Assembly: GCA_965214605.1 (NCBI GenBank)
Contig: OZ243961.1
Location: 1,696,001-1,760,000, forward strand
Reading direction: 5' to 3'
DNA: 64,000 nucleotides
Origin: an uncultured Candidatus Binatia bacterium
GTDB lineage: Bacteria > Desulfobacterota > Binatia > Bin18
Position numbers and translations under genes: made by a program. The notes under the pieces are model-generated. The model had not been told where the DNA came from and searched no databases. It saw only the letters and a program-made list of their open reading frames with translations. Shown piece after piece: positions 1 through 12,381 of the stretch; the stretch's first letter is position 1, and the number at the start of each line of letters is the position of its first letter.

Positions 1-501
1 GTCGGCGCGCGAGAACTCGAACTCTTCCAGCATCAGGCGGTCGCCGTGCGCAATCAGCGGGCTGTCCTTGGCGCAGACGGCCTTGGCACAGACGGCCTTG
101 TCTTTCTCGACCGTGGGAATCGCGGGGAAGTCACCGCTGCTGACAAGCCCAAGATCACGTTTGAGCCGGTTCAGCACTGCTGGACACGTCACCCAAGCGA
201 ACACGCCGGTCAGCGAGCGGACTGGGAAGGCGAGAATGCGGGCGTCCGAGAACGTGGCCGCGCCGGCATGGTCGGACGCGGCGTCGGTCTCCGGCCCGAA
301 TGTTGCCAGGACATCCTTGTCCTTCCGGTTGTCTTTCGCGCATTCGGCCCGCAGGACGCCCTTGAGCGACGAGCCGGGGATCAGCGGCCAGTTGGTGTGA
401 CGTTCGCGCTGCACCGGCAGATCGACCACTCCCAGGGCCGTGCCGCTGCCGGGATGAAGTCCCGTCAGAGCGTGAATAAACAGTAAGGTTTTGTCAGACA
501 T
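1..501 (-). CDS. cmr4: Type III-B CRISPR RAMP protein Cmr4 (runs off window start)
   Basis: Not in ORF track. Manual translation from ATG at 501: MSDKTLLFIHALTGLHPGSGTALGVVDLPVQRERHTNWPLIPGSSLKGVLR, the typical Cmr4 N-terminus; overlaps the cmr3 stop. Confidence 0.93.
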   Translation of the reverse strand, partial: MSDKTLLFIHALTGLHPGSGTALGVVDLPVQRERHTNWPLIPGSSLKGVLRAECAKDNRKDKDVLATFGPETDAASDHAGAATFSDARILAFPVRSLTGVFAWVTCPAVLNRLKRDLGLVSSGDFPAIPTVEKDKAVCAKAVCAKDSPLIAHGDRLMLEEFEFSRAD

Positions 502-1594
502 AGCTCCAGTTCCCCTCCACAAAACAGCCCCAGCCGACGCGCGCATCTTCATCATTGACGAGTTGGCGTGGGACTTGGGCGTTTGGCTCTACGAAATACA
601 CCGATCCGGCCGGGACCATGAAGCGGTTGGGCTTGGGGCCGCCCTTAGCCAAGTCCCAGCCGGAAACAGACTGATGTTTGCCCACAGCAGCGGCCACCGG
701 CTTGATGCCCGGCGGCTTCCAGCCGTTGAACCACGCCGGCGTGGTCAACAGCACCAGTCGGCCTCTGTTTGGCTCGGGTGGAATGTTTGGCCAGCTCATG
801 CCGTGGTCAGCAGCACGGACGACGACGTGCCGGCCTTCACCGCCAAACTTCATTAGGACCGGTTCAGTCGCAAGCGGGGCCAGGACGTCGGCAGGGCCTT
901 TCAGTTCGGCGTACAAGCCAGCCGTGGGCTTGATGACCAACATGCGAACAGCGTAGATGCGACCTTCCTGCGCGGCGTTGCGTTGCGGATCAACACTAAT
1001 ACCGGTGCGGTTGTCAAACTCGTAGACCTCCTTTTCCGGTTCCCGGATCAGATCGCCCGGCTCCGGTAGGCCACCTTCAAGGAAGCGACCCAGACCAGAC
1101 AGCTTGAGAAACCCGTCGGCGGCCTCTACAGTCTCCCGGCCACAACGCCACCACAGGGGCAGCATCTCCGGGACTTGGGGTTGCCAACCAGGCAACGGGG
1201 TTTTGAGCGGGTCTAGTCGAACCAGCCGGGTTTTCTTTTCCTGTCTGAGGGTTTTCTTTTCCTGTCTGAGGTTGGCAGGGACTGGGATGAGCACCTCGCC
1301 GTTCAGGGTGAACCATGGGCCACGTGTCCGCACCGAGGCCACGGCCGCAGCAGTGGAGCCGAACTCGCCAAGCGCTTCGGCAAGAGGGACCCCATTCCTG
1401 GTGTGTTCCCCCAGCCGATCGAAATCCACCCCGTGCCGCTCCATGAGGAGGGTTCGCACCGCACCCGCCAAGGTCTGCGGCATGGGCAGGCCGGAGGACA
1501 CACGGCTGGCCGGCTCGAACGGTCGTGCATCCCGGAAGAACAAACTATCGACCGGCTCGATCTTCAGCCGGATCAGGGTATCACCGTCAGCCAT
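494..1594 (-). CDS. cmr3: Type III-B CRISPR protein Cmr3 (Cas5 group)
   Basis: EPVDSLFFRDARPF, PMPQTLAGAVRT, KFGGEGR, SGWDLAKGGPKP..VPAGSVYF, C-terminal GWG; lies between cas10 and cmr4. Confidence 0.93.
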   Translation of the reverse strand: MADGDTLIRLKIEPVDSLFFRDARPFEPASRVSSGLPMPQTLAGAVRTLLMERHGVDFDRLGEHTRNGVPLAEALGEFGSTAAAVASVRTRGPWFTLNGEVLIPVPANLRQEKKTLRQEKKTRLVRLDPLKTPLPGWQPQVPEMLPLWWRCGRETVEAADGFLKLSGLGRFLEGGLPEPGDLIREPEKEVYEFDNRTGISVDPQRNAAQEGRIYAVRMLVIKPTAGLYAELKGPADVLAPLATEPVLMKFGGEGRHVVVRAADHGMSWPNIPPEPNRGRLVLLTTPAWFNGWKPPGIKPVAAAVGKHQSVSGWDLAKGGPKPNRFMVPAGSVYFVEPNAQVPRQLVNDEDARVGWGCFVEGNWSYV

Positions 1595-4217
1595 CGTGAC
1601 CTCGCGCTACAAAAGCTGCGCCCTGGCACAGCAGAATAAATGATTCGAGAAGTTTCGCCCTAACACCGGGATTGTCCTGGGCATAGCGCCGCCACCAGTC
1701 TTCTACGTCTTGACCCGAAAGGGCGTTTGAGTCTGACGCCGTGGCATCTGTGGACCGATTGACGAGCCGGCGTATCTCAGCAGTGACAGCGTCACAGGAA
1801 ACTGCACGGAGGGTCGGGAGTTCCTGACGCAGACGATAGGTCCAGCGGTCGGTCGATCCGGCGGTGAAGCTCGCTACCAACTGCTGGAACCATGACGCAA
1901 GCTTCCACGACAACCCAGCCTCGGAGTGTTCACCGGAGCGGCGCATGAAGCGCAGCATCAGCCGATTCCGTCCGCTGTCCTTGGCCGCTTGTTCGGCTCG
2001 GCGTGCGGCGTCAAGTGCCAGGCGAAGATCCTCCATGTAATGGACAAAGGCAATGCCGGCAGACAGGGTGGCGTTGCTCCCCATCATCAGCAGCTGGCGG
2101 TTGTCTCTCTCTGTCCAGCCGGGCGGATCTCCGTCCTCGCCACGAAAGGCGCGGTATAGCTCAGCCGCGCACTTGACCGCCTGGCGCGCCGGCAGCAGGG
2201 CCAGGACGTCGTCACCGCCTGAGTAGATCAGAGTGCCCTTATGCTCTTCTACAATGCCGGGAGCAATATGGCTGGCAAAATTGTTGAGGGCTTCGCTGAT
2301 GGCAGCGTGTAGGGCCGGCCCAACGGGACGCTTGGCGTCAAGGCCGGCTTTGGCCTTGACGCCAAGCCGTTCGTAGTAGTCCACCATCTTCGGGTGAAGA
2401 ACTTCGCACACCCGTGGCGCGTAGTCGCCCTTGAGCCAGAAGCCCATGTGGTCCGCATCCATTACCAGGATCGCATAGTACGTGGACGGTTTTTGCTTCT
2501 TCCGCGCGGCCTCTATTCTCTCCCAGACCTGTTCCGGAGGGGGCGGGTCGCCCTCTTCCACATCATCACGGCGCTTTTGGTGAAGCCAGCGTCCGCTCCA
2601 ACTCCCGTGCCTGCGCCGGATTTGATCGACCTCAAGCTTTTCTTTGGCCAGCCACTCGGCGGCGGCTACGGTCGCCGTGTCGGGGAAACGCAAGTCGGCG
2701 GGTTTGAGATGCAGTTCGCGGGTAAACGTTGCCGGGGCGGCGAACCGCTTGCACAGCGCAACCGCGGAAAAGCGCTCACTCTTGCGCAGGCGAACACCGT
2801 CGACCTTGACTTTGGCAGTCGCCTCTTTCCAGAAATTGCGCGAATCGTTCAGGTTTGCCGGCCCCATTTGCTCATAGGAGCCGAACAGGCTGCACTTGGC
2901 CGGAGCGTTTTCCTCCGGCGTGGTTTGCCTCACCGTGGGTACGTGTCGAATAGATCGCTGCGCTTCCATCAGCCGCGCCGAGACCTCAAGCTGGGCCTGC
3001 CAGCGGCCAGCGGAGCGCTGATCGTAGCGCGGGCGCTCGTTCTCTGGAATCGCATCGGCAAGCCTGCGGACCTTGCCAGCCTCCTGCCACACCTCATCGA
3101 AAGAGGCGGTGTTGGCGATGAGCCGCGCGAGACACTCGTCTTTCATGTCACGCAGGGGCAAAGTAGCCGTCCGGACCTCGAAAAAGCTCTTGATCTGAGC
3201 GTCCCAGTGCCGATCCCATTCGGGATGAATGGCATACAGCCTGTGGGCGACGAGACAACGGCGGACATCCTCTGCCAGACGACGCCACGCCGCGCGGACC
3301 GCCCCGGCGCATTTGTCGGCCATGTCCTGAACTGTCGCCCCCTCGGGTCCCCCCGGAACAACTGCAACAAAACGGTTGGGGATGGACGGGGAGCGGCGCG
3401 CCTGTATACTTGGTTCGGGAACACGGTCGTCCAGCCCAGGTTGATCGCGCAACCACAGGTCCATCAGCGGATTCCCGCGCAGGGCCGGGTAGACCAACGC
3501 GGTGGGGCCAAGTGTTTCGAGCACCGGGCGGAGCCCCTGGAAGACGAGCCACGACAGGGTGGCACTGCCGGTCCACAGATCGCGCACGCTGCGGGCCGCC
3601 TCAATGAAACTTTGCACCGGACTGAGCGAGAGCGACAGGAGGGCTCCACCGTGCGCACCTTGCCTGCTGGCCCACAGGCCGCTGGTAATGTCTGCATGCT
3701 GGGTCAGGGTATGGTCGGGAATACGGGTGTCGGCGGGCAGACGTACGAATGCGTGCCCCAAGCACTTCGCAAGCCGTTCGGGCAGGAGTCGCCAAAGAGC
3801 TAGAAAACGGGAACGTGCGCACGGCAGATCATCGACGATACTGCCGATAGTCTCAAGCACCTGCTCCTCGGCAACAATCAACCCCTCCAGAGTGTTTCTG
3901 CCTGCGCTAACCGGGTGGCATGCGTCCAGCCGGCCGTCTTCGGGGCCAACGGCGCGTTCCCCGTTTCGGCCGGCGGTCGGCATGGGAACCCGCTCGGCGA
4001 TTGCAGCGAGCGAGTCTGCTAACGACGCCGAACTTTTGATCTCCTTCCGAGTCACGTCACGGTCAAGCGCGCGGGAGGCGTACCGGGCCGCCCGAGCCTC
4101 GTGCCCCCGTATATCGAGTGCCTTGTCGACAGGGTCGTGCAGATAAGCCACCAACAACTGATCCCAATCAACGAGGTCGAGTCCGGCCGACTGTTTATTT
4201 AAGGCGGTTTTTTCCAT
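1587..4217 (-). CDS. cas10: Type III-B Cas10/Cmr2 with HD motif and GGDD palm
   Basis: N-terminal YLHDP, LPADTRIPDH, PVQSFIEAARSVRDLWTGS, YYAILVMDADHMG, IYSGGDDVLALLP; ATG at 4217 preferred over track start 4241. Confidence 0.95.
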   Translation of the reverse strand: MEKTALNKQSAGLDLVDWDQLLVAYLHDPVDKALDIRGHEARAARYASRALDRDVTRKEIKSSASLADSLAAIAERVPMPTAGRNGERAVGPEDGRLDACHPVSAGRNTLEGLIVAEEQVLETIGSIVDDLPCARSRFLALWRLLPERLAKCLGHAFVRLPADTRIPDHTLTQHADITSGLWASRQGAHGGALLSLSLSPVQSFIEAARSVRDLWTGSATLSWLVFQGLRPVLETLGPTALVYPALRGNPLMDLWLRDQPGLDDRVPEPSIQARRSPSIPNRFVAVVPGGPEGATVQDMADKCAGAVRAAWRRLAEDVRRCLVAHRLYAIHPEWDRHWDAQIKSFFEVRTATLPLRDMKDECLARLIANTASFDEVWQEAGKVRRLADAIPENERPRYDQRSAGRWQAQLEVSARLMEAQRSIRHVPTVRQTTPEENAPAKCSLFGSYEQMGPANLNDSRNFWKEATAKVKVDGVRLRKSERFSAVALCKRFAAPATFTRELHLKPADLRFPDTATVAAAEWLAKEKLEVDQIRRRHGSWSGRWLHQKRRDDVEEGDPPPPEQVWERIEAARKKQKPSTYYAILVMDADHMGFWLKGDYAPRVCEVLHPKMVDYYERLGVKAKAGLDAKRPVGPALHAAISEALNNFASHIAPGIVEEHKGTLIYSGGDDVLALLPARQAVKCAAELYRAFRGEDGDPPGWTERDNRQLLMMGSNATLSAGIAFVHYMEDLRLALDAARRAEQAAKDSGRNRLMLRFMRRSGEHSEAGLSWKLASWFQQLVASFTAGSTDRWTYRLRQELPTLRAVSCDAVTAEIRRLVNRSTDATASDSNALSGQDVEDWWRRYAQDNPGVRAKLLESFILLCQGAAFVARGHDG

Positions 4218-4243
4218 CAGGTTCTTCCCTCGCAGCTCCACAG

Positions 4244-5440
4244 TCAGTCCAGCAGTAGACTCAGATTTTGGGCCAGAACAGTGGGTAGTTGCCGACGGTC
4301 TTTAAGCAGTTTTCTGCTTTCGGGCTTGGCTGGATCGGTGCCATGCGCCAGCGTGTTTCTCAAATCCTTCAGAGCACGGTAGGCAGTGAACCGTTTGCCG
4401 GTCAACGATCCCTGGTTCATGGCGGCGGTGACTTTGTCACGGTCGTCGTGCTTGTCGGGACTCAAGCCGCCTCTTTCGCACTCCCGCGTGACCACGGCTT
4501 CCGAGCCGAAAATGGCGGCGCGCAGAAAATCACCGCGCTCCAGATATTTCTTTGCCAGAAAGTGCTGACGGCGAGAGCGTGGTTCGCCTTTCGTCCACCC
4601 AAGCGCCTCTCTTAGTTTATGCTGAAACAATCCCGACGCGCCTTGCAGCTGTTCATTCAAAACGGGCAGGAAGGTGTCCAGACCACGCTTGGCATCCCGA
4701 TCGTTGGAAGTGCGCTCATAAAACGCGGCGATCTCCAAACACTGAGCTTTGTCTTTCGGCACCCCGTCTTCGAGCAATAACGGCACAAAGACCCCGTAGT
4801 CACCGTTCGCGTCGAATCGGTCCAAGGCATCCACCCAACGCCGCACCAGAACCAGGCCGTCGAGCTTGAGCACGGGCGCGATGTCGTCACGCATCATGTC
4901 GAGCGCCCCATACCAGAGGTGGTCAACCTGCAAGGTGCGTATCCGCTCAAGCATGAAGGCGGATAGGAATCCGATCATGCCGAGATGGCGAAAGCCATGG
5001 GTAAGATCGAAACTGAGCTTACCGTCCGGAACGGTATCGGCAATAGCGCTTAAGATGTCGTATTGCTCAGCGAAGTCGGCCCCGAACGGAATGAGGCGCG
5101 GAACGACCTGCAGGCCAACGGCTTGACTCATGATTGATTCCACTTTGTCGAGCATGGCTTGGGTTACCGTTTTTTGCGTTTCCGCTTCGAGCAATTCAAG
5201 CCGCGCATCTTCGTCCTCATCCACGGAGGCAAGGCTTTCGACCAACACGCCCCACATGCTGCCGCTCGTGCCCAGAATCACCACGCTGTCCGCGTCAAGG
5301 TGGCGTGCCAGCTCCAGACCGAGAAAGGCGGTTTTTTGCAGCTGGCCATCGGGGAATCGGTAAGTCGCGGTTCGGTAGCCCATCTGCCTATCTTCCCGGC
5401 CCCTGCCAAGAAATGTCACGAGTGTGTTGGTTTTATTCAT
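4244..5440 (-). CDS. csx1: Csx1-family (TM1812/DxTHG) CARF-HEPN ribonuclease
   Basis: TLVTFLGRG..YRTATYRF, GTSGSMW, FDLTHGFRH (DxTHG), C-terminal HEPN motif RNTLAH. Confidence 0.9.
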   Translation of the reverse strand: MNKTNTLVTFLGRGREDRQMGYRTATYRFPDGQLQKTAFLGLELARHLDADSVVILGTSGSMWGVLVESLASVDEDEDARLELLEAETQKTVTQAMLDKVESIMSQAVGLQVVPRLIPFGADFAEQYDILSAIADTVPDGKLSFDLTHGFRHLGMIGFLSAFMLERIRTLQVDHLWYGALDMMRDDIAPVLKLDGLVLVRRWVDALDRFDANGDYGVFVPLLLEDGVPKDKAQCLEIAAFYERTSNDRDAKRGLDTFLPVLNEQLQGASGLFQHKLREALGWTKGEPRSRRQHFLAKKYLERGDFLRAAIFGSEAVVTRECERGGLSPDKHDDRDKVTAAMNQGSLTGKRFTAYRALKDLRNTLAHGTDPAKPESRKLLKDRRQLPTVLAQNLSLLLD

Positions 5441-5649
5441 TGCGCTCCCCGCCATCGTCCAAAAAGAGAAGACTCCCCCGTCTCCAGCGGCCCGCCTCTG
5501 CGTGAGCCGGACTCAACACCAGAAGGCAAGCCCCCGGCCGTATTCAGTATCGTCGTCTTGATGCCTGTCTGCGTCTCACTGCTGATTGTATCGTCTTTGA
5601 TGTTTCTCTCCATTGCGATGAGCTCTCCGTGCCTGCCCTGCTCCGGCAT
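5437..5649 (-). CDS. Small hypothetical ORF (70 aa) coupled to csx1
   Basis: ATG 8 nt after a TGcTATGAT -10 box; its TGA overlaps the csx1 ATG (ATGA). No recognisable family. Confidence 0.4.
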   Translation of the reverse strand: MPEQGRHGELIAMERNIKDDTISSETQTGIKTTILNTAGGLPSGVESGSRRGGPLETGESSLFGRWRGAQ

Positions 5650-5702
5650 GAATACCTATCATAGCAGCTATCACCGGGCGCGCCTTATTTGGCAAGCTTG
5701 CC
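5649..5702 (-). promoter_or_regulatory. Putative promoter with palindromic operator upstream of the csx1-cmr operon
   Basis: Minus strand: GGCAAGCTTGCC(A)-N26-TATGAT-N8-ATGCCGGA; perfect 12-bp palindrome at 5691-5702. Confidence 0.6.
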
Positions 5703-6956
5703 GTCCCTCGGGCCGTCGCGCTCGGATGGGTCGATGACCTCAAATCGGATGGCGGACACTGGAAGGTCTATACCGAACCGTTGTGAGCCAGACTGTTCCG
5801 TAGCAACGATTGTATATATCGCAGCACGGGTCCTACCGAGGGCTGGACTGAGAACCTGCTTGAGCTGCCGATTCAGCTTAGACTTGGTCTGCGTGAAGAA
5901 CTCATGATGCATGCCCTTCGCCATTGCTTTGCTGGTGCGATCGTCATTACTCCGCTCCCTAAATACCGCACGGTATTCAGCGACATATGCCGACCGTGGC
6001 AGATCAATTGAGGAAGGTTTCCACTCACCAAGTATCGCGCGATATTCTGCCAGATACTCATCCCGATAGTCTGCTTCATACACGGCCTCGTGCCGAATAG
6101 GGCAGGTCACGCCTTCTTCGTCGTGAATGCGCCGACGGCCCAGCCACGCCAGAAAGGCGAGTTGAGTCGGAGGCAGTTGCACGACCCGACCTCCGGCACG
6201 AATGCGTTTGCCGGTCAGGTCTATTACGAGTTCGGGCGGTCCAACGGCGAGTTGCGCTGCCTTGACCGTATTGACGAAGCTCTCCTGACCATTGAGAAGG
6301 CCCTCGGGCAAACCCTCTCGAAGCCGCACGAACGGAATGGTCGCCAGGGTCACCTTTGCCCGGTTCGCATCGTGAGGGCGCTTGTCGCGGTCGTGGATCA
6401 CGCGCCGGCTGCGCGATGGGTAGAAGAAGTTTGGCAAGGATTCATACGGCGCAGAGACCAGCACGTGGCTCAGGCGATCTTGGGCACGTCCGTAGAGCGA
6501 AAGCGCATAGCCAGTGTAGAAGCCCATCGTCTTCCTACCGCCGGCGATAGAGACGTGGAGAGCCGAATCCCGATCACTTGTGAGCTTACGGACCTGTTCC
6601 GCGATGTGATCGGCGGCGACATCGTTGTCTTCTTCCGTGCGAATGTCTGTCAGCGGATCAGAGCCACCGATCACATGGATATTGTCCGGCGAAAAAGCGA
6701 CGGGCGGCAGGTCGTATTCGTCGCACAGCCGACCGAGCCAGGCGTCGCCGGCCAACAGACTGAGTTCGGCATTGCGCTTGCCTTCTTTGGTGGTCAGCAA
6801 GTGGATTTCTGTGGGAGTGAACCGTGGTTCTCCCGCAACCGCCAACGCGTAAATGGTCTCGGTCACCACTTGGGGCGACAGACCGGTGGCAGCGAGTAAA
6901 ATACGATGCGGGTATTCGTATGGAGCCAATCCAGAGTGACGTTTGTGATCCGGCAT
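5685..6956 (-). CDS. NE0113/Csx14-family CARF protein (ring-nuclease-like) with probable C-terminal winged-HTH region
   Basis: RILLAATGLSPQVVTETIYAL, IHLLTT, DIRTEEDN, LHVSIAGGRKTMGFY, LYGRAQDRLSHVLV, IPFVRLR. C-terminal LVIDL..VQLPPTQLAFLAWL..FFTQTKSKLNRQL resembles OmpR-like wHTH tails. Confidence 0.88.
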   Translation of the reverse strand: MPDHKRHSGLAPYEYPHRILLAATGLSPQVVTETIYALAVAGEPRFTPTEIHLLTTKEGKRNAELSLLAGDAWLGRLCDEYDLPPVAFSPDNIHVIGGSDPLTDIRTEEDNDVAADHIAEQVRKLTSDRDSALHVSIAGGRKTMGFYTGYALSLYGRAQDRLSHVLVSAPYESLPNFFYPSRSRRVIHDRDKRPHDANRAKVTLATIPFVRLREGLPEGLLNGQESFVNTVKAAQLAVGPPELVIDLTGKRIRAGGRVVQLPPTQLAFLAWLGRRRIHDEEGVTCPIRHEAVYEADYRDEYLAEYRAILGEWKPSSIDLPRSAYVAEYRAVFRERSNDDRTSKAMAKGMHHEFFTQTKSKLNRQLKQVLSPALGRTRAAIYTIVATEQSGSQRFGIDLPVSAIRFEVIDPSERDGPRDGKLAK

Positions 6957-7007
6957 AGGTCTCAATATAACCAATTCTCTCCATTTGCTCCGATCTGGCA
7001 AGCTTGC
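6956..7007 (-). promoter_or_regulatory. Putative promoter with palindromic operator upstream of the NE0113 CARF gene
   Basis: Minus strand: GCAAGCTTGC(CA)-N26-TATATT-N7-ATGCCGGA; 10-bp palindrome at 6998-7007. Confidence 0.6.
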
Positions 7008-7869: not shown

Positions 7870-9818
7870 TCAGTTCGCAACGCTTCTCGCGAGCAATTGG
7901 TCAACGCTGGCAGCAACCTCGTAGCGGGCCGGATTTTCCCCGACCTTGAGCGCTCGAAAGTGTACCTTGCCGCATTCGATCTTGCCGGCTTCCGCGAGGC
8001 GGAGATCGTCCAGGAGGGTGCTTGCTTTCGTCTCAACGACGAAATAAACGCGTTCGCCCTCATCCGTGTCGGTGAGAACGGCCCAATCGGGGTTGTAGCT
8101 CCCGAGCGGCGTCGATACCTGAAACCAACCCGGTAGCTTGACATAGAGCTTGACGGCGGCGTTCTTTTCCAAATCGTCAGCGAACCGGGCCTCCGTGTCA
8201 GACTCGTAGATGACCTTCTCGTGGACCGACTTCTCAGCCTTGAGCATATTCTTCAGGTAGCCGATAAATTCCTCCTGCTCAAAGAATTCCTGAGCGTAGT
8301 AGGCCTCGTCCCCTATCCGTTGGTATTTTATGCCGGCGACCAGCGCTCGTTGCTTACAACTGTTGATGGCCTGCGCGGCAAGCTCAATGAACTGCTGCGG
8401 ATTGCGCTTGAAGTCGTCAAGGCGCTGGCTGCCGACGAGAAGTCTATGGATGCTGCGCCGGGTGAGCTGCGTCCGGTCCTGAAGCTCGGTGAGTAGGTCC
8501 GGTAGTTCGATATCGGTCTCTTCGAGGACGACGGTCGCCGACCCGGCAATCTCGGTTGCCTCGACTCCCGCCTGACCGATGGCTATGTCCGCCTTGCGCC
8601 ATTGCAGACGGGTCCGGGGGATTGGCTCTGCAGTCTGTAACGCAGTGGCCGAGTTCTTCAGCAAGGCTTCATTGTCGAAGGTCACGCTATAGTTGGTCTT
8701 GTGCTTGATGCGGTCCCACAACGCCTTGAACTCGGCGCTAGCGAGTACGGCTTGGCGCGGGCGGACAGTTTGCCTTTCGTCGGCATTCCTGACTTCCAGA
8801 CGCCCCGAGAGTTTGCGCAACACCGAAACGATCTCCGTCCGGTGCGCAGCAAATTCTTCGGGCAGGGCAAGAGCGTCGTCCCGGATCGCCTCCCGGAGAG
8901 AGTCCTGTATCCGCCCTCTGCGGTCGATATAGCCTTCTGCCTGCAAGTGGTCGAAAAACGCCTGCGACTTGTCGAAACCGAGGGTTGTTGTTTCTCCGCC
9001 GTCGCCGGTTACCGGAATCTGCGCGAACTGATAAGGCGATAGATCATGTGGTGCTTGTCGACGTGCGTTGCCGAGTAACGCAGCGTGCAGAGCGGGTTCA
9101 TGGCGTCCAGCGCTTTTTTGCCCCGTCCAGCTAGGCCGCCGTCCACGCTTTGCGGCTCGTCGATGATCAGTATCGGGCGCGTGGCCCGGATAAGGTCTAT
9201 CGGCCTTTCGCCGCCCGTCTTCTCGTTGTTCTTGTAGAGGTTGTTGACATCCTTCTTGTTGATGGCGCCGACCGTGACTACCATGATCTGGATTTGCGGG
9301 CTGGTGGCGAAATTGCGGACCTGGCCGAGCTTTTCCGAATCGTAGAGGAAGTACTCGAACGGCGTGCCTGAATAGAGCGTCTGGAAATGATCGTCGGTCA
9401 TCTGGAGCGACTTGTAGACGCCTTCCTTGATCGCAACCGACGGTACGACGATGACGAACTTGGTGAAACCGTAGCGCTTGTTCAATTCGAAGATCGTGCG
9501 CAGATAGACGTAGGTCTTGCCGGTGCCTGTCTCCATCTCCACGGTGAAGTCGCCGGAGCCCAGAGAGACGGACGGCGGCAGGCCGTTCCGAAGCTGGATG
9601 TCCTTCAGGTTCGCGAGAATCTCGTCGTCGAGCAACGTCAGCCGGTTGCCGACGCCGAGGTCGTTCTGGGCGAAGGCCAGCCGCTCTTGCCGATCCCACC
9701 GATCCCGGGTGACCGTGAACTCCGTCCGGCAGACCTCCTGACCGCGGAATAGGTCGCAGACGGCATCCACCGCCTGGAGTTGGAAATCGAGGTTGGGCTC
9801 GAAACGGAGCTTCATCAT
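7870..9818 (-). pseudogene. res: Type III restriction enzyme Res subunit, internally deleted and frameshifted
   Basis: N-part MKLRFEPNLDFQ..EMETGTGKT..IIDEPQ..LRYSATH; out-of-frame junction near 9035; C-part YVKLPGWF..YNPDWAV..VVETK (PD-(D/E)xK). Confidence 0.9.
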
Positions 9819-9857
9819 GCCGCAAGCTTCTCTCAACTATGTTACTACGCCATGCGG

Positions 9858-10073
9858 TCAAGCAAGCATCAGCCGTTCGCCCTTCGGCTGCGGGACCGGC
9901 CGACCCAACTCCTGCGCTCGCTCGACCCAGAACCGCATGGCGTCCTTGACATTTCGCAACGCGGTTTCCTGATCGTCTCCGTGCGCCATGCATCCGGGCA
10001 GTTCGGGGGCCTCAGCGATGAACGCCTGGTCCTCGTTGCTCCAGTAGAGAATGATCTCGTATTTGTGCATCAA
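9858..10073 (-). CDS. hicB: HicB-family antitoxin
   Basis: MHKYEIILYWSNEDQAFIAEAPELPGCMAHGDDQETALRNVKDAMRFW..GRPVPQPKG. Confidence 0.92.
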   Translation of the reverse strand: MMHKYEIILYWSNEDQAFIAEAPELPGCMAHGDDQETALRNVKDAMRFWVERAQELGRPVPQPKGERLMLA

Positions 10074-10458
10074 TCGTCTCCTCCCAGCCTGTATTTCATA
10101 ATGAACTGCCGGACCTGCTTCACTTGGTAGGGCTTGGCGTGTCCGCCACGGCTTTGCAGATTGACAATTTCCACCATACCATCCTTGTCGAACAGGTGAT
10201 GGCTTCCGCGTATGCGCTCCTCGAACCTGTGGGACCCCATCCGATTCGTGCCCATGGAGGCGGATGGCTTCCGCGTATGCGCTCCTCGAACCTTGCCCGC
10301 CACCTGGGCCGGGGTGGCGGGCGCGATCACGGATGGCTTCCGCGTATGCGCTCCTCGAACCCCAAATACTCCATCAGGGCACGCAGATCGGAGAACCGGA
10401 TGTTCGCGTCCGAGCGTCCCCGGAGAATTGTCTGCAAAAGCCGCTCATGCCGGTTCAT
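10070..10458 (-). pseudogene. hicA: HicA-family toxin disrupted by two repeat-spacer insertions
   Basis: Removing 134 bp (two repeat+spacer units) restores a 255-bp ORF: MNRHERLLQTILRGRSDANIRFSDLRALMEYLGFEERIRGSHHLFDKDGMVEIVNLQSRGGHAKPYQVKQVRQFIMKYRLGGDD. As present, a TGA follows ...RGSHP. Confidence 0.92.
10198..10361. repeat. CRISPR-like mini-array: 3 x 30-bp exact direct repeat with 35- and 39-bp unique spacers
   Basis: GATGGCTTCCGCGTATGCGCTCCTCGAACC at 10198-10227, 10263-10292 and 10332-10361. Confidence 0.95.
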
Positions 10459-12381
10459 GGACTATCATCCCCAACCCGCCGGTATCACACCGCACGTTGC
10501 CGAGGCCGCGCTGCTTGAGAGTCTCGGCGAGGTTCGCCTTCGCGACGTCGTCTGCGAAAGCGCTGTCACGGAAAATGACGGTGGTCTCACCGGCGGGGGC
10601 GAGCGCATCATGCCAGTCGGCTATGCCCGCCGCCAGCGGCTCCACATCATCGCGAGAAACTGCTTCGACAAGGCAGGCGATCAGCGTGCCGGCGCCGACC
10701 GAGTGCACGCACTTGCCCGCGATGGTCTTTGTCTCGATGGGCACGCAGAGATCAAGACCGAGCTTCAGTAGGAGTTCGTAGAGAATGTCTTCCTCGCTTC
10801 GATCCGACTTAATGTGGTCGATGCTTCCGAGCAACGTCCCATCCAAATCTTCGCGGTCTGGTTCCCAGGCACGGATGTTGGACGAATCCAACTTGAAGAC
10901 CCTGAAGCCGGTGTCGCCCTTGTGGTCGGGATTCTCAGCTTTTATTCGCTCACCGGCAGCCTTTGCGCGCGCCTTTGTCACTTCGAAGATAGTCGAGAAC
11001 TGCTCATTTCCTGCTACAGGCTCTGGCAATTGAACCAAGATGAAGCGACGGTAACCGCCCTCATCCCTGTTCAACAACTGTATGACAGCGTGGCCGGTGG
11101 TCCCACTACCCGCAAAGAAATCCATGACAATAGCATTTGGATCCTCGCCAGTGACGGCGAGTAGACTGTCGTAAACAGACCAGAGGCTCTTGGGAAACGT
11201 AAAAGGCGAGTCTGGAACAAGGTCTCTAACTAATCTTGTTCCGTAGTCATTCGCGTCATACCTCTTGTCAGTCCAGACAGTCCTAAAGCGCCCAAAGTCC
11301 TTTCTTATCTCAATCTCGTAACCTCCATCCTCTTCCTAGGACGAAGCAGGTGCTTTCTGGCATCAACCGATTGCCTGACGTATCGCCACTTTCGCTCGGT
11401 ACCTGACTTGTCGATCGGGTAGACGTAAACAGCCTCACATCCATGGACGCTCTGCCGTGGATGGAAGTCGTCATCACATACATCGCCGAAGCCGGTAATC
11501 TCACCATCCTTCACTATTATTGGATAGAAGCAATTCTTCGCATCCTTTCTTTCAGACTCTGTTCCCCAATTCCTGAATTGGGACCACTTCTTCTCGGATT
11601 CATCAATCTTCCTATCGGAAATTGCTTTCGTTCCACTTGGATAGACGAAGAAGGCATATTCGTGGACATATGAGAAGTTCCGGCCCTGCACTCCTCGCGG
11701 ATTGTGCACAATCGGTACACACACGTGATCGTAACTACCCTCTTCATATATTTCCTTTAGGACCATCCCCAACTGGGTTACTTCATTGTCGTCAATCGTA
11801 CAGATAAGTACTCCGTCCTGCCTAAGGAGATTCCTGGCGACCTTGAGCCGTGGATAGATCATGGACAGCCAATTGGTGTGAAACCGGCCACCGATCATGG
11901 GATTACTAGAAAGGCTCACGCCTCCCTCGACTTGGCCGGTTACTTCAAGATAAGTGCGAATACCATCGTGATAATCGTTGGGGTAAATGAGATTCTTACC
12001 GGTGTTATAAGGAGGATCGATATAGATGGCTTTTACGCGGCGACTGAAACTCTTCTGCAGGAGTTTCAGCACCTCCAGGTTGTCGCCCTCGATCACCAGG
12101 TTCTGAGTGGTGTTCCAATCGACGCTCTCATCGGGACATGGGCGGAGTGTGCCGGTGGACGGAGTGAGAGCAAGCTGCCGTGCGCGCGCTTGCCCGTGCC
12201 AGTTGAGGCCATACTTTTCCTCGCGATCGTTCACAGCGTCGCCGAGAAGCTGCCGGAGCACCTCGAAGTCTATCTTTCCCTCGGAGAATGCTTCGGGGAA
12301 CAAAGCCTTCAAGCGTTCGAGGTTGTCGGCAAGGATATCCGCGGAGCGGGTTTCCGGGTCGCCGCCGCCGATCTTCTCCAT
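10445..12381 (-). pseudogene. mod: Type III R-M DNA methyltransferase Mod, frameshifted
   Basis: EKYGLNWHG, IEGDNLEVLKLLQKS, IYIDPPYNTG, then a frameshift near 11325 into DGGYEIEIRKDFGRFRTVW..FTFPKSL..MDFFAGSGTTGHAV..DTGFRVFKLDSSN. Confidence 0.9.

Follow-up and report, generated by a model that had tools for sequence, protein, structure and literature searches.

A CRISPR-like array within a hicA toxin gene: a probable product of off-target Cas1-Cas2 integration in a Candidatus Binatia genome

A hicA toxin gene in a stretch of 64,000 nucleotides from the chromosome of an uncultured Candidatus Binatia bacterium (contig OZ243961.1; the whole stretch is called the window below) is split by a small CRISPR-like array: 30 bp of the gene's own coding sequence stand there three times, with two inserts of spacer size between them. 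It is very probable that this array is a neo-CRISPR, the product of off-target integration by Cas1-Cas2. The signature of such integration, which the initial annotation had read from the array itself, is supported by the exact duplications, by an empty site in a relative, by inserts that come from outside the locus, by resident cas1-cas2 genes and by units of the same build across the genome. Cas1-Cas2 as the agent, the module that supplied it and the reason why the array has persisted are what we infer from these observations.

The interrupted hicA gene

Repeat search and DNA search find the 30-mer (GATGG...GAACC on the plus strand) in three exact copies in the window (Table 1), at start-to-start distances of 65 and 69 nt. 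No shuffled sequence gave any match (0 of 100 shuffles), and the whole 4.37-Mb assembly contains the same three copies and none further. The two inserts are without relation to each other or to hicA. The initial description of the locus, a 30-bp piece of hicA repeated around unrelated inserts of 35 and 39 bp, agrees with both the exact copies and their spacings. The borders of the units carry an ambiguity of 1-2 nt, with CG preceding copies 2 and 3 and T following copies 1 and 2; the 30-mer itself has G first and C last, whichever strand is read.

Translation of the 30-mer on the minus strand gives (G)FEERIRGSH. Scripted removal of 134 nt yields an 84-aa frame with a single terminal stop, and the two hicA fragments tile intact 84-aa relatives at 88-90% identity, with an overlap that consists of FEERIRGSH only. 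A 61%-identical hicA homologue in the related genome G009 is tiled likewise by both fragments in protein alignments. The claim that deletion of two units restores a clean HicA of 84 aa is borne out by the reading frame and by the tiling alike.

The assignment to the HicA family comes from the relatives of the gene. Taken alone, the fragments in the window are too short and have no Pfam match, and the G009 homologue scores 26.6 bits against HicA_toxin (PF07927), just under the cut-off of 27. Among close relatives with a length of 84-87 aa, many have a PF07927 match on record as precomputed, and two of them are named HicA family toxin by NCBI; for hicA, a search of the PDB by sequence returned chance matches only. 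The gene downstream encodes a HicB-like antitoxin (Table 1). On these grounds the putative product is accepted here as HicA, though the profile does not recognise the window's own pieces. The knock-out of the toxin, as the initial annotation called it, is seen at the level of the reading frame, as a truncation and a frameshift.

In the proposed mechanism, a Cas1-Cas2 integrase would have put a prespacer into hicA twice, each time into the same 30-bp stretch. Each event would involve staggered attacks 30 bp apart, and gap repair or fill-in would then duplicate the 30 bp around a new spacer of 35 or 39 nt, as at a leader-proximal repeat. With one and the same sequence fixing the two cut positions, both duplications would come out identical. 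The outcome would be a neo-CRISPR with three repeats and two spacers, in which HicA is frameshifted and truncated after residue 42 and hicB is intact. The array may have survived because loss of a toxin costs nothing when the antitoxin is kept; the neighbouring restriction-modification (R-M) genes are also decaying.

Empty site, assembly support and origin of the inserts

The state of the locus before insertion is preserved in a relative. Logan contigs from four sequencing runs were placed on window positions 9700-10900, and two of these runs, X1 from 2024 and X5 from 2019, which belong to separate studies, contain a hicA contig of ~90% identity that joins position 10197 straight to 10332, omitting exactly 134 nt. 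It carries 15 differences over 143 nt and 14 over 184 nt, and at the joint 30 letters can be assigned to one side as well as to the other. Its flanks turn unrelated beyond 10055 and 10515. An insert-free hicA allele, which the initial annotation had proposed to look for, exists in this relative.

The same runs speak to the integrity of the assembly. The strain's own contigs show 0 differences; they end at 10227 in both X1 and X5 and resume at 10332 (X1) or 10360 (X5). The breaks fall at the repeat copies, as expected of a graph with k=31 that meets a 30-32-mer in several copies. The coverage of insert 1 equals the strain's own depth in X1 and in X5. It is scarcely credible that the array is an assembly artefact: short repeats can mis-assemble, the evidence comes from contigs rather than from single reads across the three copies, and X1 or X5 may be the assembly's own source, but contigs of two studies match the flanks without a difference, stop and start at the copies as the graph predicts, and carry insert 1 at the expected depth. 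The contigs argue against the objection, raised from the outset, that reads might expose an artefact.

Besides hicA, the genome matches insert 1 only at C1:4260285-4260318 on the chromosome, where 33/35 positions are shared (one mismatch and one single-base gap, a missing A), and the homology ends at the borders of the insert. The match lies in an open reading frame (ORF) that is divided over two frames (C1:4259798-4260549) beside a C5-methylase fragment; this ORF has no Pfam or NCBIfam match. The extra A of insert 1 would merge the two open frames, extending the product from 180 aa to 250 aa, and because it joins both frames insert 1 seems to record an unbroken version of the ORF. Read in the sense of hicA, insert 1 is antisense to this plus-strand ORF.

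Insert 2 is single in the genome, its best other match being 15 nt long. A separate X1 contig matches positions 10294-10332 and has unrelated flanks on both sides; its depth is roughly five-fold higher (~27). Both inserts are copies of DNA from elsewhere, and in both the homology is confined to the insert. A local template, or membership of a family of repetitive extragenic palindromes or miniature inverted-repeat transposable elements, had been named as an explanation that would tell against integration; each insert is single in the genome save for the one diverged copy of insert 1, which speaks against both.

Searches of wider collections returned little for the array. Positions 10228-10331 of the window, which comprise both inserts and the repeat between them, gave chance matches only (E ~1) among 50,697 phage and 72,556 plasmid records. 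The exact patterns of insert 2 had 0 matches, as a 38-mer in IMG/VR and GTDB and as a 28-nt hairpin core in JGI and GTDB, and the 30-mer had 0 exact matches in IMG/VR or JGI metagenome contigs, in scans that require exact matches and may omit the window's own genome.

Native CRISPR-Cas systems and footprints across the genome

The genome is rich in adaptation genes. It has 8 Cas1 and 7 Cas2 matches, which disposes of the objection that the lineage might lack cas1 and cas2, and contains four complete CRISPR-Cas systems of types II, III-B, I-E and I-D, each with cas1-cas2 and an array (Table 1). Degraded cas1/cas2 remnants and small arrays are also present. Spacer lengths differ between the systems, and those of type I-D, whose array is located 2.2 Mb from hicA, cover both hicA inserts (35 nt in 10/75 spacers, 39 nt in 7/75). 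Type III-B spacers are 39 nt long in 3/24 cases. The initial annotation had held that type III spacers vary over the sizes of both inserts; for the III-B array of this genome, with its range of 39-52 nt, this is correct for the 39-nt insert and wrong for the 35-nt one. Neither insert fits the spacer length of type I-E (33 nt) or type II (30 nt).

The likeliest integrase, as a best guess from these lengths, would be that of the I-D module, followed by the III-B-linked one. Read leader-first, I-D spacers have a final G in 48/75 cases and a G at the preceding position in 36/75; on the plus strand, G is likewise the last base of each hicA insert, which may be a weak hint at I-D and at a plus orientation. 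Units with I-D or III-B geometry elsewhere in the genome also show shortened duplications of 33-36 nt, and because of these a flexible second cut by the I-D or III-B integrases is plausible.

Several observations weigh against integration at hicA by one of the resident modules. The duplication of 30 nt (29-32 nt with the border ambiguity) equals none of the native repeat lengths of 28, 36, 37 and 38 nt, so that the comparison with the genome's true repeats, suggested in the initial annotation, goes against its reading, and the unit lengths of 65 and 69 nt match no native period. Anchored at its borders, the 30-mer is most similar to the I-D repeat (14/30, P = 0.09). Taken as the maximum over five native repeats, its likeness is at chance level against random genomic 30-mers (P = 0.35), and its agreement with the common native tail ...GATTGAAAC (5/9, P = 0.08) is suggestive at most. 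The protospacer flanks that were compared have no consistent sequence resembling a protospacer-adjacent motif (PAM), and none has GTN, the PAM of type I-D. A single-insert allele was seen in none of the four runs, whose contigs cannot prove its absence. Insert 1 differs from its genomic copy at two positions, so that its true donor may be another sequence, and no donor of insert 2 was found in phages, plasmids, IMG/VR, JGI metagenome contigs or GTDB genome contigs.

Context for the hicA array is provided by the rest of the chromosome, which was scanned for exact direct repeats outside known arrays, in pairs of at least 24 nt. Among 83 exact pairs the gap is 30-39 nt long in 20 and 40-49 nt in 7, and each remaining 10-nt bin, up to 369 nt, contains 1-7 pairs. 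About 20 further solo units of the form repeat-insert-repeat are present, and the lengths of their duplications and inserts copy those of the native I-E, II and I-D/III-B arrays. There are four exact pairs with a 28-nt duplication and a 33-nt insert; when up to 3 mismatches are allowed, seven units have exactly the 61-nt period of type I-E. One unit has the geometry of type II, and about a dozen have duplications of 33-39 nt and inserts of 34-44 nt.

Some of these inserts and sites can be traced further. Within a set of 29 exact pairs that were examined, nine have an insert with a second copy in another part of the genome, the homology not extending past the insert; hicA insert 1 is one of the nine. 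Tandem or protein repeats account for four of the 29, and a genuine mini-array for one. Relatives are empty at two of the four sites tested: C1:4089123 appears as a clean 61-nt gap against genome G006, and C1:2103855 is single-copy in G003. No relative aligns across the other two, C1:2197075 and C1:4250365. In register with the I-E repeat, the four exact sites of I-E geometry give P = 0.03, 0.08, 0.01 and 0.08, and the site of type II geometry shares 18/36 positions with the native type II repeat (P = 0.003).

Two sites appear to have been struck more than once, hicA and C1:711165. The latter (C1:711165-711385) holds a C-rich 28-29-nt sequence in four copies, the last of them degenerate, at periods of 62, 60 and 64 nt, and it looks like a neo-array of I-E geometry that has gained three inserts. 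The misfires at hicA are one case among many in this genome.

Other candidates were set aside. The three-copy seeds at C1:834000, 2078434, 3015619, 3841112 and 3915044 are ordinary tandem or protein repeats, and C1:593262, 594395, 1511153 and 2602461 were dropped from the list of units. Contig C4 was rejected as donor of the insert at C1:3068860; it duplicates the locus, repeats included, and holds no protospacer.

The genome-wide lengths bear on the question of whether Cas1-Cas2 is needed at all. Template switching or end-joining repair could produce duplications with filler between them, and neither the length nor the sequence of the hicA duplication matches a native repeat, as would suit such an origin. 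Repair would, however, need to make the same exact 30-nt duplication twice at hicA, each time around a spacer-sized insert from a distant locus. Across the genome the lengths are quantised at native CRISPR values, as in the seven units at exactly 61 nt, and the sites of I-E and type II geometry resemble the corresponding repeats in register, with the P values given above. An origin by repair is very unlikely.

The native arrays yield some observations of their own. Overlapping protospacers are shared between systems: III-B and I-E by 24/25 nt, III-B and I-D by 22 nt, and I-E and I-D by 19 nt (arrays compared: C1:1687758-1689739, 2301762-2307667 and 3922754-3928385, the last being I-D). Some native spacers match the host chromosome perfectly, those of III-B at C1:51258 and those of I-E at C1:3218149 and C1:3170433. 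Contig C2 (1208 nt) is a fragment of an I-D array, most of whose spacers are missing from the array on the chromosome, which points to array variants within the population. At C1:612052-613540, beside a weak Cas1-like ORF (E 1e-12), stands an odd array in which a 24-nt repeat returns every 43-44 nt, 15 times in all; its spacers are only ~19-20 nt long, and about nine in a row are identical. Small genuine arrays lie near degraded cas genes at C1:912965-913056, 3644454-3644640 and 2534815-2535085; they comprise a palindromic 27-nt repeat in two copies near a Cas2-like ORF, a repeat ending in ...GATTGAAAC in three copies beside cas1/cas2 remnants, and a second I-E array of five copies.

Genomic setting, known systems and significance

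The hicAB pair is placed exactly at the junction of mod and res in a decayed type III R-M operon (window 7870-12381), and in the relatives G006 and G007 these two genes adjoin each other, hicAB being absent from the junction. The pair therefore has the appearance of an acquired cassette, and it could have been imported by horizontal transfer with the array already written in a former host by a Cas1-Cas2 with a repeat of ~30 nt. Such an import would account for a 30-nt duplication that fits no resident system, and the 90% hicA relative does sit in a different genomic context. Against this, insert 1 has its 33/35 copy in the same genome, and insert 2 matches a contig of a metagenome that contains this strain. 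The three 30-mers are still identical, which suggests recent events, and the genome shows local misfires at many other sites, in some of which the duplication (for example 33-35 nt) falls short of the native repeat. Import of a finished array is unlikely, and integration in the present host is the reading followed below.

The start of the window holds the distal part of the III-B locus. Its Cmr5, a fused RAMP gene, a Csm6-like gene, cas1, cas2 and the 25-repeat array are located upstream of the window at C1:1687758-1696555, with the linked cas1, cas2 and array at C1:1687758-1691273; Cas10/Cmr2, Cmr3, Cmr5 and RAMP subunits are found together, as expected of type III-B. The initial annotation had put the neo-CRISPR about 3 kb from a type III-B locus. 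This is right for the end of the locus, whereas cas1-cas2 and the array are ~15-18 kb away.

Table 1. Features of the hicA array and its surroundings, native CRISPR-Cas systems, and repeat-insert-repeat units elsewhere. Plain positions refer to the window; those with the prefix C1 refer to the chromosome.
Feature	Position	Strand	Details
30-mer copy 1	10198-10227		Continuous with the 3' part of hicA
30-mer copy 2	10263-10292		
30-mer copy 3	10332-10361		Adjoins the 5' part of hicA; encodes GFEERIRGSH of the N-terminal fragment
Insert 1	10228-10262		35 nt
Insert 2	10293-10331		39 nt; holds a 10-bp GC-rich inverted repeat
hicA 5' fragment	10327-10458	minus	43-aa ORF ending ...GFEERIRGSHP, stop one codon past copy 3
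hicA 3' fragment	10070-10227	minus	FEERIRGSH to the original stop
hicB antitoxin	9858-10073	minus	71 aa, intact; HicB_lk_antitox 38.1 bits, cut-off 27
Type III R-M mod	10445-12381	minus	Frame-shifted, ORFs 11305-12381 and 10445-11125; end overlaps hicA start
Type III R-M res	7870-9836	minus	Two frames, 9009-9836 and 7870-~9000
Type III-B locus, distal part	1-7001	minus	RAMP, Cmr3, Cas10/Cmr2, TM1812-family and NE0113-family CARF genes
Type II system			Cas9, 613 bits; repeat 36 nt; spacers 30 nt in 11/16
Type III-B system			Cmr genes; repeat 37 nt; spacers 39-52 nt in 24/24
Type I-E system			Cse1; repeat 28 nt; spacers 33 nt in 94/96
Type I-D system			Csc2, Cas4, Cas6, helicase; repeat 38 nt; spacers 33-40 nt in 75/75
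Period-61 units	C1:91695, 125255, 500128, 1399850, 2694922, 3921609, 4089123		
Type II-geometry unit	C1:4250365		36+30
38+35 units	C1:2103855, 3068860		
37+40 unit	C1:2197075		
37+41 unit	C1:3676203		
Further solo units	C1:1967743, 3085507, 916264, 4282949, 1509172, 1692733, 2206322, 2360674, 1803273		
Copy of insert at C1:500128	C1:974074		33/33
Copy of insert at C1:1399850	C1:1691840		Inside the III-B locus
Copy of insert at C1:4089123	C1:915912		
Copy of insert at C1:4250365	C1:1462672		

The proximity of effector genes raises the question of function. The array could be a working mini-array or a regulatory RNA locus of the CreTA kind, kept by selection. It stands inside the hicAB transcription unit, with whose message it could still be transcribed according to the initial annotation, ~3 kb from type III-B effector genes, its insert 1 is antisense to the ORF near C1:4260 kb, and ectopic repeats with regulatory roles are known (PMC9458426). 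The repeat is nevertheless hicA coding sequence, found only at this locus in the genome, in contrast with the repeats of a canonical CRISPR array, and exact matches to it are absent from IMG/VR and from JGI metagenome contigs. With its resemblance to native repeats at chance level, the 30-mer gives no sign of a Cas6 or 5'-handle signal. A scan of positions 9700-11400 found 0 promoter-like and 3 terminator-like sites against 1.3 expected, which has no bearing on transcription either way. A functional role for the array is unlikely, and a locus maintained by selection as a mini-array or regulatory RNA is a highly improbable one.

As a class, the hicA array has precedents. Nivala, Shipman and Church reportedly obtained neo-CRISPR arrays with over-expressed E. 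coli type I-E proteins (Nat Microbiol, 2018). The hicA case is alike in that a spacer-sized insert entered a non-CRISPR chromosomal site and is flanked by a duplication of the target, and in that a repeat-spacer-repeat unit can seed an array from which immunity is not expected. It differs in being natural, inside a toxin gene and struck twice, in having a duplication of no resident repeat length, and in belonging to a genome that appears to carry units left by four different adaptation modules. A 2020 study is said to have described small arrays far from cas genes, proposed to have arisen de novo via off-target integration. Unlike in those arrays, an intact gene is known at hicA as the sequence before insertion, the site has also been seen empty, and both inserts have matches.

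Published texts describe related activities. Off-target integration that spawns arrays is ascribed to Nivala et al. 2018 (cited in 10.1101/148544 and PMC6607411), and natural cases in two other species are called circumstantial evidence (10.1101/148544). In vitro, off-target full-site integration by Pyrococcus furiosus Cas1-Cas2 takes place where the DNA is repeat-like and has G/C borders at a distance of 30 bp (PMC6698737). The hicA 30-mer likewise has G/C borders at a fixed spacing in non-CRISPR DNA. In P. furiosus, however, the off-target spacing is that of the native repeat (30 bp) and the sites have positionally conserved bases in common with that repeat (PMC6698737), whereas at hicA the likeness to a native repeat is not above chance. 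A type III-A Cas1-Cas2 is described as promiscuous without HU (PMC13769266). CreTA provides a case in which CRISPR-like repeat units outside arrays are tied to toxin-antitoxin biology (PMC9458426). There, CreA uses degenerate genuine CRISPR repeats and guides Cascade; at hicA the repeats consist of coding sequence of the toxin, whose gene is destroyed rather than regulated. In the literature searched, no array of this kind is reported from within a toxin-antitoxin gene, and no single genome is described as bearing footprints of more than one system. The hicA array is itself of a known type, and the genome-wide record of several systems is the more unusual result.

So far, most demonstrations of off-target integration have used over-expressed E. 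coli proteins or were made in vitro. The hicA locus adds a natural case with an intact target, a duplicated target and two inserts with traceable relatives. It is accompanied by footprints of ruler length from I-E, II, and I-D and/or III-B-linked modules, the 37- and 38-nt repeats of the last two being indistinguishable in this respect. CRISPR adaptation would in this light act as an endogenous insertional mutagen, and here it appears to have disabled the toxin of a toxin-antitoxin pair, judging from the broken reading frame. The misfire sites give in vivo target preferences of several integrases together, and the many self-derived inserts suggest what naive adaptation captures before autoimmunity filtering. 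For the origin of new arrays, the hicA locus is a concrete substrate for testing.

A more far-reaching interpretation, which is improbable, is that hicA shows an array being born: an off-target acceptor would have turned into a preferred target that gains spacers and is transcribed from the hicAB promoter. If this were true, RNAs made beside the III-B effector locus could start to act as guides or as antisense regulators. On that view the genome would amount to a natural ledger in which four co-resident integrases have recorded adaptation without a filter, and self-derived spacers would owe their survival solely to a place outside functional arrays.

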